64,000 nucleotides of DNA from the NCBI RefSeq assembly GCF_963921235.1, contig NC_086108.1, positions 57,848,001 to 57,912,000 on the forward strand, given 5' to 3'. The notes under the pieces were generated by a model. The model was not told the DNA's origin. It was given only the letters and a program-made list of their open reading frames with translations, and did no database searches. The position numbers and the translations under genes were made by a program. Below, piece after piece: positions 3,150 to 57,984 of this stretch (positions are counted from its first letter, which is position 1; the number at the start of each line of letters is the position of its first letter). Source of the DNA: Mobula hypostoma. Lineage: Eukaryota.

Positions 3150-4572
3150 CATAGAAAATAGGTGCAGGAGTAGGCCATTCAGCCCTTTGAGCCTGCACCG
3201 CCATCAGTATGATCATCGCTGATCATCCAACTCAGAACCCTGTACCAGCCTTCCCTCCATACCCCCGATCCCTCTAGCCACAAGGGCCATATCTAACTCC
3301 CTCTTAAATATAACCAATGAACTGGCCTCAACTGTTTCCTGTGGCAGAGAATTCCACAGATTCACCACTCTCTGTGTGAAGAAGTTTTTCCTAATCTCAG
3401 TCCTAAAAGGCTTCCCCCTTATCCTCAAACTGTGACCCCTCGTTCTGGACTTCCCCAACATCGGGAACAATCTTCCTGCATCTAGCCTGTCCAATACCTT
3501 TAGGATTTTATACGTTTCAATAAGATCCCCCCTCAATCTTCTAAATTCCAGAGAGTATAAGCCTAGTTGATCCAGTCTTTCATCATATGAAAGTCCTGCC
3601 ATCCCAGGAATCAATCTGGTGAACCTTCTTTGTACTCCCTCTATGGCAAGGATGTCTTTCCTCAGATTAGGGGACCAAAACTGCACACAGTACTCCAGGT
3701 GTGGTCTCACCAAGGCCTTGTGCAACTGCAGTAGTACCTCCCTGCTCCTGTACGCGAATCCTCTCGCTATAAATGCCAGCATACCATTCGCCTTTTTCAC
3801 CGCCTGCTGTACCTGCATGCCCACTTTCAATGACTGGTGTATAATGACACCCAGGTCTCATTGCACCTCCCCTTTTCCTAATCGGCCACCATTCAGATAA
3901 TAATCTGTTTTCCTGTTTTTGCCACCAAAGTGGATAACCTCACATTTATCCACATTAAATTGCATCTGCCATGAATTTGCCTACTCACCTAACCTATCCA
4001 AGTCACCCTGCATCCTCTGAGCATCCCCCTCACAGCTAACACTGCCGCCCAGCTTCGTGTCATCTGCAAACTTGGAGATGCTGCATTTAATTCCCTCATC
4101 TAAGTCATTAATATATATTGTAAACAACTGGGATCCCAGCGCTGAGCCTTGCGGTACCCCACTAGTCACTGCCTGCCATTCCGAAAAGGTCCCGTTTATT
4201 CCCACTCTTTGCTTCCTGTCTGCCAACCAATTCTCTATCCACATCAATACTATACCCCCAATACTGTGTGCTTTAAGTTTGCACACTAATCTCCTGTGTG
4301 GGACCTTGTCAAAAGCCTTTTGAAAATCCAAATATACCACATCCACTAGTTCTCCCCTATCCACTCTACTAGTTACATTCTCAAAAAATTATATGAGATT
4401 CGTCAGACATGATTTTCCTTTCACAAATCCATGCTGACTTTGTCTGATGATTTCACCACTTTCCAAATGTGCTGTTATCACATCTTTGATAACTGACTCT
4501 AGCATTTTCCCCACCACCGATGTTAGGCTAACCGGTCTATAATTCCCCGGTTTCTCTCTCCCTCCTTTTTTA
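3150..4572 (-). mobile_element. CR1 LINE, 5'-truncated, relatively young
   Basis: ORFs 3981-4364 and 3213-3830: [57 protein letters not shown]1 3' UTR at ~3150-3230. Confidence 0.95.
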
Positions 4573-47653: not shown

Positions 47654-50600
47654 ATATGATAATCCTTTCATTCCTGGAAACATCCTTGTGAACCTCCTCT
47701 GGACCCTCTCCAATGCCAGCACATCTTTTCTAAGATGAGGGGCCCAAAACTGTTCACAATACTCAAGGTGAGACTTCACCAGTGCCTTATAAAGCCTCAG
47801 CATCTCAGCTTGCTCTTCTATTCTAGACCTCTTGAAATGAATGCTAATATAGCATTTGCCTTCCTCACCACCGACTCAACCTGCAAGTTAACCTTTAGGG
47901 TGTTCTGCACAAGGACTCCCAAGTCCCTTTGCATCTCAGATTTTTGGATTTTTCTCCCCATTTAGAAAATAGTCTACACATTTATTTCTACCACAAAAGT
48001 GCATGAACATGCATTTTCCAGCATTGTATTTCATTTGCCACTTTCTTGCCCATTCTCCTAATCTGTATAAGTCCTTCTGCAGCCCACCTGTTTCCCCAAC
48101 ACTACCTGCCCCTCCAGCAATCTTTGTATCATCTGCTAATTTGACAATAAAGCCATCTATTCCATCATCTAAATCATTTATATACAGTATAAAAAGAAGT
48201 GGTCCCAACATTGACCCCTGCAGAACACCACTTATCACTGGCTACCAACCAGAAAAGGATCCTTTTATCCCCACTTGCTTCCTCCTACTAATCAGCCAAT
48301 GCTCTAACCATGTTAGTAACTTTACGGTAATAGCACAGGGTCTTAACTTGGTAAGCAGCCTCATCTGTGGTACCTTGTCAAAGGCCTTCTGAAAGTCCAA
48401 CTGTACAACATCCACTGCATCCCCTATATCTATCCTACTTCTAATCCCCTCAAAGAATTCCAGCAGGTTCATCAGGTGGGATTTCCCCTGAAGGAAGCCA
48501 TGCTGACTTTGTACTATCATGTCCTGTGTCACCAAGTACTCCATCACCTCATCCTTAACAATTGACTCTAACATCTTCCCAACCACTAAGGTCAGACTAA
48601 CTCATCTATAATTTCCTTTCTGCTGCCTTCCTCCTTTCTTAAAGAGTGGAGTGACATTCGCAATTTTCCAGTCCTCTGGCATCATGTCAGAGTCCAATGA
48701 TTTTTGAAAGATCATTTCTAATGCCACCTCTTTCAGAACCCTAGGGTGCAGTTCATCTGGTCCTGTTGACTTATGCACCTTTAGGTCTTTCAGCTTTTTG
48801 AGCATCTTCTCTCTAGTAATAGTAACTGCACCCACTTCTCTTCCTTCGCACACGACAACATCAGACATACAGCTAATGTCTTCCACAGTGAAATACTCAT
48901 TTAGTTCATCAGCAATCTCCTTGTCCCCAGTTATTATTTCTTCTGCCTCATTTTCTAGCAGTCTTATATCTACTCTCATTTCTCTTTTATTTTTAACATA
49001 CTTGAAAAAACTTTTACTATCCACTTGGATATTATTTGCTAGCTTGCTTTCATATTTCATCTTTTCCCTTCTAATGATTTTTAGTTGCTCTCTCTAGGTT
49101 TTTAAAAACTTCTTTGTCCTCTATCTTCCCACTAATTTTTGCTTTGTTGTCTGCCCTTTCTTTTGCTTTTACAATAGCTTTGACATCCCTTGTCAGCCAC
49201 GGTTGTACTATTTTACCTTTTGAGTATTTCTTCATTTTTGGAATACATATGTCCTGCACCTTCCTCATTTTTCCCTGAAACGCACACCATTGCTGCTCTG
49301 CTGACATCCCTGCCAGCAACTCCTTCCAATTTACTTGGCCAACTCCTCTCTCATACCATGGTAATTCCCCTGACTCCACTGAAATATTGCTACATCAGAT
49401 TTTACTTTCTCCCTATCACATTTCAAGTTGAACTTAGTCATATTGTGATCACTGGTTCCTAAGGTAAGCTCCCTAATCGCCTCTGGTTCATTACATAACA
49501 CCCAATCCAGTGTAGCTGATCCCCCAGTAGGCTCAACGACATACTGCTCAAAAAAGCCAACTCTTAAGCATTCCACAAACTCACTCTCTTGAGATCCATT
49601 ACCAACCTAATTTTCTCAAACGACCTACATGTTAAAATCTCCCATGATTACCATAATATTGCCCTTTTGACATGTCTTTTCTATTTCCTGTTGTCATCTG
49701 TGGTCCACCTCCCAGCCATTGTTGGGAGGCCTGTATATAACTGCCATCAGGGTCCTTTTACCCTTACAGTTTCTTAACTCAACCCACAAGGATTCAACAT
49801 CTTCTGATCCTATGTCACAGCTTTCTACTGATTTGATGCCATTCTTTACCAGTAGAGCCATGCCTCCCCCTCTGCCTACCTTCTTATCCCTCCAATATAA
49901 CATGTAACCTTGGACATTTAGATACAACACCTTGAGTACCATATTTGTTATCCTTTCTGATTCTGCATCCCTGATGATTTGATACTCAGCCTGTTGGCTG
50001 CAACTAAGTCCCATCACCTGCCTGCCCTCCCTGACAGTCTGACTACACACTATCTTTACTTTTTTACCATCCATCCTATCCTGAGTCCCTTCTCTCCTGC
50101 TCCCACCCCCCTGCCAAATTAGTTTAAACCCTCCCCAACAGCTCTAACAAACCTGCCCACAAGAATATTGGTCCTCCTCGGATTCAGGTACATCTCCTCA
50201 CTTTTGAACAGGTCATGCCTCCTCAGAAGCGATCGCAAAATGATCCAAAAACCTGAAGCCCTGCCCCCTGCACCAGCTTCTCAGCCATGCATTTATATAA
50301 CCATATAACAATTACAGCACGGAAACAGGCCATCTCGGCCCTTCTAGTCCGTGCCGAACTCTTACTCTCACCTCGTCCCACTGACCTGCACTCAGTCCAT
50401 AACCCTCCATTCCTTTCCTGTCTGTATATCTATCCAATTTAACTTTAAACGACAACATCAAACCTGCCTCAACCACTTCTGCTGGAAGCTTGTTCCACAC
50501 AGCTACCACTCTCTGAGTAAAAAAGTTCCCTCTCATGTTACCCCTAGATTTTTGTCCTTTAGCTCTCAACTCATGTCTTCTTGTTTGAATTTTCCCCACT

Positions 50601-51242
50601 CTCAATGGAAAAAGCCTATCCGCGTCAACTCTATCTATCCCCCTCATAATTTTAAACACCTCTATCAATTCCCCCCTCAACCTTCTACGCTCCAAAGAAT
50701 AAAGACCTAACTTGTTCAACCTTTCTCTGTAACTTAGGAGATGAAACCCAGGCAACATTTTAGTAAACCTCCTCTGTATTCCTCTGTACATCTTTCCTAT
50801 AATTTGGTAACCAGAACTGTACACAATACTCCAAATTTGGCCTTACCAATGCCTTGTACAATTTCAACATTACATCCTAACTCCTATACTCTATGCTCTG
50901 ATTAATAAAGGCCAGCATGCCAAAAGCTTTCTTCACCACCCTATCCACGTGAGATTCCACCTTCGGGGAACTATGCACCATTATTCCTAGATCCCTCTGT
51001 TCTACAGCATTCTTCAATGCCCTACCATTTACCATGTATGTCCTATTTTGATTAGTCCTACCAAAATGTGGTACCTCACATTTTTCAGCATTAAACTCCA
51101 TCTGCCATCTTTCAGCCCACTCTTCTAACTTTCCTAAATCTCCCTGCAAGCTTTGAAAACCTGCCTCATCTTAACATCTTAGTCCATGTGTATTTTGTAA
51201 CTCTTTTGTTCTGGACACCAGTGACTACCAGGAATAGTCTGG

Positions 51243-54200
51243 TTGGCAACCGGGAATAGTCCGGTGACAGCGTGGAGAGACAGCGGACAGCCAGGAAAGA
51301 CTGGCACCGGGGGTGTCAGGATTGGCAGTCCGGGCACCAGCTCAGAAGAGCACCCACCTCTTGAAGCTTCTAGTTTACATGGAGAAACATACGCTCAGGG
51401 TCTTCCGAGAGGGAGGGAGAATGATGGACCCAATCGGACGGATACAGTTAATTACAGGGAACGACTACGACCAAGAGCTAGGATAATAGGCTGTGAGTGT
51501 CCAGTGTGTTGGTGTGGGAGAGCATTTTTCAGCATTAAAGGTTTACGAGTCCACCAAGCAAAATTGAAGTGCTATTCCATCCCAGTGGATGAAGATGAGA
51601 TTTCTTCACCAAGCACAGATGATGTGGTCTTTTCAACCACTGATTCACAAGCCACAGCGATTCGCTCTGGAGAGTGTCATCATACTCCAGGTCAGACGAG
51701 AGATAACCCAAGTCAGGTTTCAGACCACAGTTCCCAGGTAGATTCCTCGCATGATGGTGGTGGTGAGGAGGTAGAGAAGAAGAGGAAGGTCAAGTGGCCA
51801 GCAATGGCAGATGAGAAGGTCTGGCGTGTAGTTGATGAGGATATCAGTATGATGTTGGAGAACACTCTCAGGGGAACATCAAAGAGAAAGTTGGAAGTGA
51901 TGGGCGATATGATTTACGACGTTGGAAAGTACAGGTTTAGTTTGGTTGTGTTGAAGAAAACAAAGCCTACACAGCAACCAAGCAGGTGCCAGAAGGAGAT
52001 TAGTAGGTTGAGGAGAGAGCTTAGATCGTTGAGACAGAGGTGGAAGGTAGCAAGTGAGGGTGACAAGCCAGGGCTTGCTGATCTCCGAGAGCATTTTCAA
52101 ATAAAGTTAGCATCACTCCGTCATACAGAGTCACAACATAAAAAGAGAAAGAAGAGAGAGAAGGCAAGAAAGTCATTCTTTGAGAACCCTCACGAGTTCA
52201 CAAAGAAACTGTTTGAACGAAGCAAGAGCGGGCAGCTTAACATCTCCCAACAAGAACTTGAGGATCACCTAGCAAGCACTTACTCTAACAAACAGCAGGA
52301 GGCTCCTTTGCTTGACATTTCAGGGCTTGTGAAGCCTACCAAGCCAGGAGTGAAGTTCGATCTGTCAGAACCCAAACTGGCAGAAGTTGAACGGTTCATC
52401 AGAAAGGCAAGGTCAGGCTCAGTGCCAGGACCTAATGGAGTTCTGTATAAGGTGTTCAAGAAGTGTGAGGAGCTGAGGAAATACTTGTGGAGATTGTTAA
52501 AGGTGGTGTGGAGACAAGGTGTTGTTCCTTTGTCATGGAGTGAGGCTGAAGGAGTATACATCCCGAAGGAAGAGAATTCTTCTACATTGAATCAGTTCCG
52601 ACCAATTTTACTCCTGAATGTAGAGGGGAAGATTATGTTTGACATTCTGGCAGAAAGAATATCTTTATTTGTGATTGAGAATGGATTAGTAAATACATCT
52701 GTGCAGAAGGCAGGAATACCAGGCTTCCCAGGATGCTTTAAACATTCTAGTATGAAATGACATACTGCCCAGGAGTCAAAAAGGTTGAGAAGAAATCTGG
52801 CTGTAGTTTGGCTTGATCTGGCAAATGCATATGGCTCTGTTCCCCATGTCCTGATTGAGTTTGCGATGGAATTCCTATGGATTCCTGCTAAGGTGAGGAA
52901 CTTTGCTATGCAGTACTACAACGATTTCCGGATGAGGTTTTCCACTCAGCAGTTTACAACTAGGTGACAGAGCTCGGATGTTGGAATCCCAATGGGATGC
53001 GCAATTTCACGCATCCTTTTTGTGTTAGCCATGGAGGTTATTGTGAGGGCTGCAGAATCAGTGGGACCAGGTGTCGCACTTGATGGCGGAGAGGAGTTAC
53101 CACCAATACGAGCGTTCATGGATGATTTTACCCTTTTGGGTCCCAGCACGGAGGCAGTGGAAATGTACTATTTAGACTCGAGGAGCTAATGGATTGGGGA
53201 AGAATGAAGTTCAAGACCAAGAAGTCAAGGAGCCTTGTTATTAGGAGAGGAAAGCTGGTTGACTTTCATTTCACCCTTTGTGGAAAGGAGATTCCATACA
53301 TTCAGGACCAATCAGTTAAGAGCCTCGGGCGATGGTACACAGAGGAGCTGAGAGACACCAAGAGGGTTCAAGAGACAGGAGAACAGATCAACGGAGGTCT
53401 GATGTCTGTTGACAAGTGTGGCTTGCCTGGCAAGTTGAAGTTGTGGTGCTTGCAGTACGGACTGATGCCACGGATAATGTGGCCACTAACTGTCCATGAA
53501 GTGGCAATATCCCATGTTGAGGCAATGGAACGGAAGATCAACAAGTATGTGAAGAAGTGGCTTGGAGTACCAAGCAGCCTCACCAACGTTGCAATCCACA
53601 GTAGCCAGACAAAGCTTACCATCCCAGTGCAATCCCTTGTTGAAGAGGTCAAGGTAGCCAAGGTAAGATCATTCTTGATGCTTCGAGACTCAAAAGACCC
53701 GGTCATCAAGAACACCCAGCCGGATGTGAGATCAGGCAGGAAGTGGTCAGCCCATGTAGCAGTTGATGAGGCAGAGTCTAGATTGAAGCACAAGGAGACG
53801 GTTGGGGCTATCCAGCTAGGCAGCCAGGGACTTGGATGGACAACCCACAAGTGGTCGATATCTTCTACAGGTAAGGAGCGCCGTGAGCTTGTAACACAAG
53901 AAATACGAGAGGTAGAAGAGGAGAAGAGGTTAACTGAAACAGCTGGTCTGGCCAAACAAGGGACTTGGACCCAGTGGGAAAGTATTGAACAACGACACCT
54001 ATCTTGGAATGTTCTGTGGCAGATGGAACTGCTCCACATTTCTTTTCTATGCAGAGCAGCATACGATCTGCTCCCAACACCTGCCAACCTCAGCACCTGA
54101 TATGAAGATAAGACAGACAGGTGTGCTGCTTGTGGCGAGAAGGGAACACTTCAACATATCTTGAGTGCATGCAGAGTCAATCTTTCCAGCGGCACTTACA

Positions 54201-54781
54201 TTTGGAGACATAACAACGTTCTCAAAGTTGTAACAGAAGCGGTGGAGCAGAGAGTACTGCAGCACAACTTATCTCATGCCCCATGCTGCACAGAACATCG
54301 CATATCATTTGTGAAAGAAGACTCCAAGTCAAGGGTGTACAGTATAGGCTCACAATCAAGCATACTTTCTCCAGCCAATGATTGGTGTGTCAAGGCCGAC
54401 CTGGATGGGAAAGGCAGTTTCCTGGAGCAAATAGCTTTCACAACATTGCGTCCAGATATAATCGTATGGTGTGATACCAGTAGAGAAGCGGTTATTGGTG
54501 AACTCACAGTCCCCTGGGAAGACAACATCGATGAAGCCCATGAGCGCAAGTTAACCAAATATGCAGAGTTGAGATCAGAGTGCAGAGACAGAGGGTGGAA
54601 GGTCTCATGCTATCCATTCGAAGTAGGCTGCTGTGGGTTTATTGCGTTCACTCTCCAGGAGTGGCTGCGTGACCTTGGCTTCACTAGAAGAGAGATCAAG
54701 TCAACCAGCAGGGCTGTAGCTGAGGCAGCAGAGAAAGGGTCAGCGTGGGTGTGGACCAAGTATGTCCAGAGGGGCAGATAG
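51243..54781 (+). pseudogene. Hero-like polyprotein (~1180 codons) with three TGA stops (52758, 52965, 54098) and one frameshift (~53162); true start uncertain
   Basis: CWCGR...GLRVHQAKLKC finger; PGPNG, IPK, FRPI.LLN.EGK, DLANAYGSVPH, GIPMGC..S..LF, AFMDD; C..CGEKGTLQHILSAC, RHNNVL, RPDIIV, ELTVPWE, ERK..KY. Confidence 0.9.
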
Positions 54782-54903
54782 TCAGACAGTGTATACATAT
54801 CTTGCAAACCCTTCAGTAGTTGCACAGACCCCTGAAGAGTAGACTATCTGTTGGATGGAAGTGACCAATAACTCTGATAGAGGCAGATGCCAAATTTTTA
54901 AGC

Positions 54904-55022
54904 TCACCAGTGGGAGGTGGTGCTTTAGCACTGCTGGCCCACCACCTCGAGGGAGTCTTGATCATAAGCGGGCCGAAACTCCTGAAGACAGGTGGCAGAT
55001 CAACTGATGATCCCACTGGTGA
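54904..55022 (+). ncRNA. Structured 3' UTR RNA: hammerhead-core motif with non-canonical pseudoknotted topology, four-way junction and kink-turn
   Basis: GTC 54955-57, GAAA 54975-78, CTGATGA 55004-10; stem I 54958-63/54998-55003; stem III 54951-56/54978-83; helices 54904-15/55011-22, 54916-23/54928-35, 54936-40/54970-74, 54942-47/54990-95. Confidence 0.7.
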
Positions 55023-57984
55023 TAGCACAGGACAGTTAACATCTTAGTCCATGTGTATTTTGTAACTCAAATCAGCCACAACACCAGCTATCTTAATGTC
55101 ATCTGCATACTTACTAATCCAATTTACCACCCCATCATCCAGATCATTAATATATATATATGACAAACAACATTGGACTCAGTACAGATCCCTGAGGCAC
55201 ACCGCTACACACCATCTTCCAATCTGACACACAGATATCCACCTCTACTCTCTGGCGTCTCCCATCTAGCCACTGCTGAATCCATTTTACTACTTCCATA
55301 TTAATGCCTATCGATTGAACCTTCCTAACTAACTTTCCGTGTGGAACCCTGTCAAAGGCCTTACTGAAGTCCATATAGACAACATCCACCGCTTTACCCT
55401 CGTCAACTTTCCTAGTAACCTCATCAAAAAATTCAGTAAGATTTGTCAAACATGACCTTCCACAGACAAATCCATGTTGACTGTTCCTAATCAGACTCTG
55501 TCTATCCAGATAATTATATATACCATCTCTAAGAATACTTTTCATCAATTTACCCACCACTGACATCAAACTCATAGGCCAATAATTGCCAGGTTTACTC
55601 TTAGAACCCTTTTTAAACAATGGAATCGCATGAGCAATACGCCAATCCTCCGGCACCATTCCTGTTTCTAATATTTCTGTCAGAGCCCCTGCTATTTCTA
55701 CACCAACTTCCCACAAGGTCCTAGGGAATATCTTGTCCGGACCTGGAGACTTATCCACTCTTATATTCCTTAAAAGCGCTAGTACTTCCTCTTCTTTAAT
55801 TGTCATACTTTCCATAACTACCCTTCTTGTTTCCTTTACCTTACACAATTCAATATCCTTTTCCTTAGTGAATACCGAAGAAAAGAAATTGTTCAAAATC
55901 TCCCCCATCTCTTTTGGCTCTGCACATAGCCCTCCACTCTGATCCTCCAAGGGACCAATTTTATCCCTCACTATCCTTTTGCCACTGACATAACTGTAGA
56001 AACCCTTTGGATTTATTTTCACCTTACTTGCCAAAGCAGCCTCGTATCTTCTTTTAGCCTTTCTAATTTCTTTCTTAAGATTCTTTTTACATTCTTTATA
56101 TTCCTGGAGTACCTCATTAACTCCAAGCTGCCTATATTTATTGAAGATCCCTCTCTTTTTCCGAACCAAGTTTCCAATATCCCTTGAAAACCATGGCTCT
56201 CTCAAACTTTTAACCTTTCCTTTCAATCTAACAGGAACATAAAGATTCTGAACCCTCAAAATTTCAAAATTATCTGCCAAATCGTCCTGTTTCTACCCTC
56301 ACTAGGGCGTGGCACAGGAAGCAATCCAGAAATTACTACCTGGGAGGTCTTGCTTCTCTGCTTTCTACCTAGCTCTCTAAATTCTCTCTTCAGGACCTCT
56401 TTGCTTTTCCTTCCTATATCATTGGTACCAATATGTACCAAGACATCTGGCTGCTTTCCCTTCCTCTCCAAAATGTTGTGGACGTGATCTGAGACGTCCC
56501 TGACCCTGGCACCTGGGAGGCAACATACCATCCGGGTGTCCCGTTCACATCTACAGAATCTCCTGTCTGTTCCTCTCACTACTGAGTCCCCTATCACTAC
56601 TGCTTCCTTCTTTCTCTTTCTAAACTCTTCAAATGAATTGAAAGAAGAGGTTCCCCATTTCATTGAAAACTTAGATAAAGGATGAGTTGCAGTAATTCCA
56701 TGTCTGAGGTGAGCAGCTGAACGCTCACTGAATCTATAAATGGGTGTTCACTATAATGTCAGCAATTGCACTGCTCTGACATCCATTTGCTTCGATTGAT
56801 GCCCTACGTTACAAGTTTTACTCTGTTCTTATCTATGTATATCTTTGAAAGCTTAACCTAGTAGCATGTACTCCCTCAATTCCAGAAAACTCACTGCAGA
56901 TATTTTCTAGCTCCATCTCCTTTAACAATGAGATTGCCGTGGTCCTTTTGGATTTTGTAGATAGTGAGCAAAACGTTGATCTTTAGTTTTGAAGAGATGC
57001 TGTACATAAAAATTAAAGGTCACAGTCAAAGACTAATACAATACAATACTCATCATTGCACAGCCTCCTCCATCACCTCAGATGAATGCAAATGGTTAAA
57101 AGTAAATCAAACGAAAAATTTTGATTAATAGACAGCTCAGACTGCTAAAGTTAGAGGAAGCATATTGATTAAATAATCGTATTAATGCAACCCTTTTGTT
57201 TCCTCTTAGTGACAACTTCTCAACTTAGTTTGCTGGCCCTACTACTACCACACACTGTCCCATTTCCCCTTCAGCTGTAATCAGGCTAATGAGAGGCTGC
57301 TCTCTTTCAGTGTGGTTGAGTAAAGATGACCATGATGGATAACTACGATCAGCCCTGGATCTATAAGGGCCAGCTGGTGATTATAGCAACACTAGCTAAT
57401 GGGTGGGGAAGATTGTTTGGCAACCTAGGCTCGTGAGCTGAGGGATGTATTTAAGGTCATTCCCTATGAAAGTACAGATGCTGACATTTTTTAGAGGGGA
57501 TAAGAATTTTCTATCTCCACCATGCCACTGGGACTAGTCAAACTCTGGATGTATCCAATGTGACCTAGTTCATATGAATATTGTCTATGTCTCCAGACAT
57601 TACATTACAGACAATAAACATCCGCATGACAGTAATGTTCCCTTTAATGGTAAGTGTGCCTCTGGAATCATCTGTCTGATTAACAGTCTGCACAGTTCCA
57701 TTTGGAGTAACCAGATGCCCAGGGTGGAAATGTTGAATACTAAAGGACACAGCTTAAAATGAGAGGGGGAGTGTTTAAACAGATTTACAAGGCAAGCATT
57801 TTTAACAGAGTGGTAGGTGTCAGGAACACAATACCAGGACAAATGGTTGAGCTGATGCATGGACCAGTTCTTGTGCTGTACTGTTCTATGTGCTATGAGG
57901 CACAAGGATTTTGGTAGTGTCTCATAGAAAGAGAAACTTGCTTTGTTAAGATAGGGGGGTCACTATCATGCTGCTGATTATTCC

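Follow-up and report, generated by a model that had tools for sequence, protein, structure and literature searches.

LINEs are considered to reverse-transcribe a linear RNA, beginning at the 3' end, and internal priming by R2-type reverse transcriptases (RTs) is known. A route through ribozyme processing and circular RNA has been proposed for Penelope elements and for retrozymes; we found none in print for elements of the R2 group. Members of the HERO clade (HERO-1_BF, HEROTn, HEROFr and HERODr) encode, like the element described here, a single ORF with a zinc finger, an RT, a CCHC knuckle and a restriction-like endonuclease, and insert non-specifically. Among hammerhead ribozymes, the non-circularly permuted type-SGC and type-CSG variants came from searches of RefSeq, metagenomes and metatranscriptomes, those of type SGC cleave in vitro (Eckert et al., 2023, PMC10085705; works cited here and below by PMC or preprint number are drawn on in excerpt), and the excerpted main text of that study links none of them to a retrotransposon.

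The window analyzed here, a stretch of 64,000 nucleotides of Mobula hypostoma contig NC_086108.1 whose numbering is used throughout, contains on its minus strand a CR1-type LINE with an RT gene that is interrupted immediately past the YADD motif, at YADDIKIAGVVA|DEAGFQSLQG in translation. The decayed portion upstream of the break occupies positions 55074-56292 and the portion downstream of the break positions 50312-51167; the right host flank matches RVT_1 (E 1e-20). The inserted DNA, on the plus strand, begins with a 33-nt leader (51171-51203) that is 100% identical to the last 33 nt of the element (55036-55068), the two starts being 3865 nt apart; 14-mers from this sequence have no other match on either strand of the window. 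The empty site is covered by contigs from public runs X1, X2 and X11, in which the 33-mer is missing and atc occurs once: three X1 contigs and one X2 contig join 51169 to 55076 with 3 letters in between, and one X11 contig joins 51167 to 55071, its 3 letters fitting both sides. These contigs identify atc (51168-51170 on the left, 55071-55073 on the right) as the target site duplication (TSD), and leader and element, bracketed together by atc, are a single insertion; two additional A's (55069-55070) lie between the end of the 33-mer and the right atc. Thus, the claims of the first-pass annotation on the insertion site are borne out: the 33-mer is exact at both ends, excision restores the CR1 RT frame with at most atc duplicated, and the repeat is not a TSD, the search of empty CR1 sites for the 33-mer, which could have overturned this last point, having found sites that lack it. 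A second insertion upstream of the first was considered and rejected because neither host DNA nor a TSD separates the leader from the sequence that follows. The window is rich in CR1, with at least 8 further decayed RT-bearing LINE fragments detected by motif scan on both strands between positions 3900 and 62000.

The element body (51204-55068) is a decayed single-ORF non-LTR retrotransposon, a dead full-length copy. Its head, or 5' UTR (51204-51378, the right boundary being approximate), aligns to positions 247-329 of the metagenome contig L003 and holds two 22-nt tandem repeats (51222-51265), possibly a promoter or a protein-binding array. Short tandem repeats are also present in the 5' UTR of L003 (288-390), and a translation of the repeat starts the Dreissena proteins P0073, P0080 and P0097, which are distant mollusc relatives. 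The ORF (51379-54781) is 64-67% identical to P0001 and is damaged by three stops (52758, 52965 and 54098) and a frameshift near 53160; its first ATG, at 51379, is out of frame with the remainder. It encodes an N-terminal zinc finger (from 51492), the RT motifs (52809-53126), a CCHC knuckle (54122-54172) and a restriction-like endonuclease (54449-54520). When a family profile of 31 sequences was compared to PDB, R2 proteins were the best matches (E 1e-53, against 1e-35 for L1); Pfam gave no family for the three ORF pieces scanned, the fourth piece, with most of the RT core, lying outside the scan.

The single ORF, in which the RT is followed by the CCHC knuckle and a PD-(D/E)xK-type endonuclease and no APE is present, and the mostly non-site-specific insertion that is evident from dissimilar 3' flanks (agreement 0.44) are features of the HERO clade, and by eye the RT motifs agree with those of HERO-1_BF and HEROTn, not with the adjacent R4 entry (alignment in the supplement of PMC7650587). 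The element therefore likely belongs to this clade, and the domain order and the RT motif match support its initial description as HERO-like. Lancelet proteins, with approximately 70% identity, are the nearest of the full-length named sequences among 97 homologues, and this level is compatible with either horizontal transfer or slow evolution; a Mobula gene model contains a fragment 90% identical to the element. Near-identical element sequence also appears under at least 6 organism labels in 11 studies. Longer relatives of 1300-1600 aa and approximately 40% identity (P0085-P0088, P0093 and P0094) carry PF02902, a NeSL-like feature that we take to be a Ulp1-like protease domain.

The 3' end of the family is fixed at the terminal 33 nt (55036-55068), with no poly(A) past the aa at 55069-55070, and 73 contigs of X1 and 7 of X11 depart from the reference at 55061 into dissimilar flanks. 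Summed contig depth, which is not taken as copy number, climbs steeply toward this end in the pattern of a 5'-truncating LINE. The raw-read run X21 contributed 6 reads, all distant, and the genome-contig collection and the viral contigs contributed 1 weak locus each, with 0 motif matches in the viral contigs and no HERO copy in either set. Only L003 tests a head, because the other three of the four metagenome loci are incomplete: L001 stops inside the ORF, L004 is broken on the 3' side and L002 comes without the 5' part. In L002 (931-1800), an internal deletion joins the ORF straight to the start of the predicted ribozyme domain described below, which is whole in this copy and carries GUA and CUGAAGA variants; L002 may be a non-autonomous derivative.

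At 51203|51204 the leader abuts the head with no host DNA or TSD between them, in accord with the original interpretation of the left end as a tail-to-head joint, and the same joint recurs in other copies. It is present in four sequence families, namely the window element, L003, the P0100 cluster and P0125. In L003, which is 70% identical to the element over 2.1 kb, the 3' UTR stands directly ahead of the 5' UTR, positions 93-268 being 83% identical to 54891-55061, with weaker similarity reaching back to approximately position 76. In the P0100 cluster, the tail runs into the head in 3 of the 15 listed members and probably in a fourth. We compared 23 tail ORFs, that is, short ORFs that gene calling happened to place on the tail (7 from one search, 14 of the 15 listed among the 19 in the P0100 cluster, P0123 and P0125; P0104 and P0123 are possibly one locus). 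Four of these (P0100, P0110, P0114 and P0125) continue into the head and one (P0113) probably does so, 15 enter dissimilar sequence, and 3 end too early to tell; these counts are not frequencies because the protein queries spanned the joint. Because the tail or the joint served as seed in the protein searches, heads without a leader fall outside the count.

The leaders differ in length (33 nt in the window, approximately 90 nt in P0125 as estimated from codons, and approximately 200 nt or more in L003), and the position of the joint is constant, with 6-8 nt (partly read from codons) from the tail end to a conserved head motif and an identical joint peptide in three members of the P0100 cluster. 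One X11 contig aligns exactly from 51171 to 51492 with 21 unshown letters ahead, as a longer leader predicts. The joints in short metagenome contigs may be assembly paths through the repeated tail, and these contigs show the joint, not arrays. No tail-to-head joint was seen among the 15 of 47 read-contig joints that were listed; in P0012, the 20 residues that precede the head gave no significant alignment to the tail, and a search for further heads seeded with P0125 returned P0125 itself only. The two other matches among the three in the search that gave P0125 (P0124 and P0126) are unrelated repeats and were dropped. Taken across the four families, the sequence comparisons indicate that the joint is real and family-wide, and it has the form of the partial-tandem pseudo-LTRs of Penelope-like elements. 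In the tail ORFs P0104 and P0123, and also P0105, P0108 and P0109, 1-2 extra residues are common with the head before the sequences diverge; 3' ends may on occasion reach a few bases past the joint into the head, an outcome that would require a circular or tandem template.

The 3' UTR contains a predicted permuted hammerhead domain (54904-55022, plus strand). Helix P0 (54904-54915 with 55011-55022), for which three compensatory pairs were found among three copies, closes the domain and is followed by hairpin P1 (54916-54935) and by the stem II region (54936-54974; stem II itself is 54936-54940 with 54970-54974), which includes the 5' arm of a helix X (54942-54947 with 54990-54995) that would tie stems I and II. 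Block S (54952-54963) consists of the 5' arm of stem III (54952-54956, pairing with 54978-54982), the GUC triplet (54955-54957) and an arm of stem I (54958-54963, pairing with 54998-55003), with the predicted cut after 54957. Block G (54975-54982) comprises GAAA, starting at 54975, and the 3' arm of stem III, and the segment 54998-55010 comprises the other stem I arm and CUGAUGA, starting at 55004. The order of the blocks, cleavage site, GAAA, CUGANGA (S-G-C), is a non-circular permutation and differs from the circularly permuted type I, II and III orders. The first-pass annotation had described the motif as hammerhead-like and placed a predicted 5' end at 54958, both of which are real as sequence; of its analogy with Penelope elements and retrozymes, the hammerhead likeness stands, and membership in their types I, II or III does not, the permutation being non-circular and CUGANGA split.

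The hammerhead core (CUGANGA, GAAA and UH, with G10.1-C11.1 and A15.1-U16.1) is complete in all three DNA copies. Among these copies, 23 of the 119 positions of the domain vary, and variation at the 19 core and adjacent positions is confined to N7 and H17, the two free ones. The three compensatory pairs in P0 were reached in 6 of 500 shuffles; in stems I, II, III and X, 98.5% of the cells are paired with no two-sided change in the three copies, II and X being invariant, and the minimum-energy fold contains P0, P1 and stem II in each copy. An S-G-C descriptor matched the window at one place and 2 of 6 loci, L002 and L003, also at one place each; it had 0 matches in 3.84 Mb of shuffled window, a comparison that is not independent because the descriptor was written after the motif had been seen. 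Rfam reports no hammerhead match in the element, L002 or L003. Two more CUGA-like words, one of them ahead of a small hairpin, occur upstream in the 3' UTR (54829-54885), where the descriptor finds no full hammerhead.

The distinctive trait of the motif is that CUGAUGA runs into P0 and the 5' strand of stem II follows P1, that is, P0 and P1 are inserted between A9 and G10.1. The predicted result of these two additional helices between CUGAUGA and stem II is a four-way junction at the A9/G10.1 step. Natural hammerheads are known to carry single extra nucleotides at this step (PMC4209133); for helices there, we found no precedent in the excerpted parts of PMC10162972 and PMC3088659 or in a literature search. 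Because CUGAUGA without an adjoining stem II breaks the 'block C' rule, as formulated in the excerpted text of PMC10085705, the motif may be inactive or slow. Two other pairing schemes were rejected: P0 as stem II, since no GAAA follows the P0 partner, and a contiguous block C, which pairs worse (-6.1 vs -9.2 kcal/mol) and competes with P0 (-24.7). Two of seven tail ORFs (P0099 and P0101) have their start at the predicted cut or no more than one codon away, which is only a hint of cutting because the P0099 start may be a choice of the gene caller. A lancelet gene model, P0006, includes the motif in its reading frame as far as the cut site. In a run labelled as RNA (the label is a guess, and contigs alone were available), no pile-up of ends was reported. 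At their C-termini, P0014 and P0019, relatives with 50% identity, match the stem II / helix X arm over five residues (E 0.02), which hints that the motif may reach distant HERO families.

The end point of insertions lies 111 nt downstream of the predicted cut, and therefore the longer copies were reverse-transcribed through the cut site, which implies a template that was uncut, re-ligated or bridged by a jump. The L003 leader spans the predicted cut, and a linear RNA with its 5' end at the cut cannot be its template. We propose, with confidence and doubt in about equal measure, that the template of the family is a circular RNA produced by the ribozyme, on which the RT starts at the tail/head joint and runs more than one lap. 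Two ribozymes would be present in a source copy whose tail-derived leader is long; such a leader is seen as DNA in L003, and the second ribozyme is postulated. In a transcript that reads through both, cleavage after each GUC would release a predicted 3865-nt monomer that starts at the position of 54958 and would contain the tail/head joint internally, and this monomer would be closed by ligation or by a jump of the RT across the nick. The RT/endonuclease would then nick a non-specific target and begin reverse transcription at the internal joint; what is observed with regard to this step is the fixed 3' end, the dissimilar flanks, the lack of poly(A) and the short TSD, and the internal priming itself is conjectured. 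Most copies would halt early and a few would lap more than once; stops in the second lap after 33, approximately 90 or 200 or more nt would give the variable leaders that are observed, the window leader being read, by comparison with the longer ones in L003 and P0125, as a 5'-truncated second round. New circles could come only from copies whose leader holds the entire ribozyme, which the window copy could not have provided. More tentatively, and with rather more doubt than confidence, we suggest that a lineage of HERO LINEs, present in animals ranging from lancelets to cartilaginous fish, replicates through a circle that is cut out by an active hammerhead, with the RT priming inside it; the hammerhead topology, a non-circular permutation in which a four-way junction splits the CUGANGA block, would be a previously undescribed one, and these elements would be rolling-circle R2-type LINEs.

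The same joint could arise from a linear template if the element is a partial tandem of the kind seen in Penelope and HeT-A, which, according to the excerpts of PMC2377424, show a full copy preceded by another that is truncated to a variable extent. Under this reading, which we hold to be credible and on the unlikely side, the upstream tail provides a promoter, the ribozyme trims the 5' end and perhaps aids translation, RNA that the 3' ribozyme has left uncut acts as template, and the leaders derive from the 5' tag or are rebuilt by re-priming. The 33-nt and approximately 90-nt leaders are shorter than the 111 nt thus permitted, permuted hammerheads are on the slow side (PMC10085705, excerpt), so uncut RNA could persist, and 5' ribozymes assist translation in other elements (PMC13725137, excerpt). 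However, the L003 leader crosses the cut site, so that a second mechanism would be needed, the same ribozyme present at both ends should cut at both, and the promoter in the upstream tail is only postulated.

Another reading is recurrent end-to-end template jumping, in which the RT, having reached the 5' end of one RNA, often continues at the 3' end of that RNA or of another; the RNA would then be an ordinary linear unit that runs from head to tail, and the motif an RT-binding element or a dead ribozyme. R2 proteins jump to more 3' UTR templates in vitro and can yield head-to-tail tandems in cells without a circle (both PMC11371274, excerpt), R2 3' UTRs are structured, and the spacer at the joint differs by 1-2 nt among families. 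Nevertheless, we consider this reading improbable: it requires precise RNA ends without poly(A), with no known way to make them, it leaves unexplained why the core is retained with only N7 and H17 changing, and it has to account for the same joint peptide in three P0100-cluster members. A one-off event, be it the single jump that the first-pass annotation had admitted, a long TSD or an assembly artefact, fits the single copy within the window but is largely refuted and very improbable, given that the 33-mer is missing from empty sites, atc brackets leader and element, and other families and copies carry the joint and tail-derived leaders.

If the circular-RNA proposal is correct, a ribozyme-circle strategy would exist in a second autonomous RT lineage, and this high-copy system could be used for testing the circle model. 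Likewise, non-circularly permuted hammerheads would be placed in animal genomes and the known hammerhead topologies widened, which would explain why scans of the Rfam type miss them. R2-type proteins serve gene insertion, an application for which a member able to prime within a circular template would be of interest.

The element thus combines features of several known systems. With R2 it shares the protein architecture, as the PDB comparison indicates, and R2 also has ribozyme-processed RNA and template jumping; unlike the window element, R2 inserts specifically into rDNA, carries its HDV-like ribozyme at the 5' end and lacks a terminal repeat. With Penelope-like elements, as described in the excerpts of PMC4209133 and PMC2377424, it has in common a partial tandem, a truncated upstream tail and a hammerhead in the repeat, and the circle model has likewise been proposed for these elements (PMC4209133). 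In contrast, they possess a different, telomerase-like RT class, a GIY-YIG endonuclease and a minimal circularly permuted type I hammerhead, whereas the protein encoded in the window is R2-like and its putative ribozyme is of another topology. Non-LTR retrozymes give rise to hammerhead-processed monomers and circles from tandem DNA (PMC7229834; bioRxiv 10.64898/2026.07.22.740005), but they are non-coding and non-autonomous, 170-400 nt long, with a type I hammerhead (PMC7229834), in contrast to the 3.9-kb coding element. Type-SGC hammerheads, as presented in the excerpts of PMC10085705, resemble the window motif in the S-G-C order, the short linker between stems I and II and the helix tying the far ends of these stems; they differ in that the 5' strand of stem II comes immediately after CUGANGA, whereas P0 and P1 separate it from the CUGAUGA of the window. 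Our literature searches, outside of which lie Repbase Reports and Fell et al. (2025) that may mention terminal repeats, found no HERO element with a hammerhead, terminal repeats or a tail-to-head leader, and no R2-group LINE that has the joint together with a circle and a permuted hammerhead, or a split CUGANGA; nor is this combination mentioned in the excerpted parts of PMC4640811, PMC3636483, PMC7650587, PMC13580325, PMC13725137, PMC3088659 and PMC10162972. The separate parts have precedents, and what appears to be new, judging from these comparisons, is their combination in an R2-group LINE along with the split CUGANGA block.
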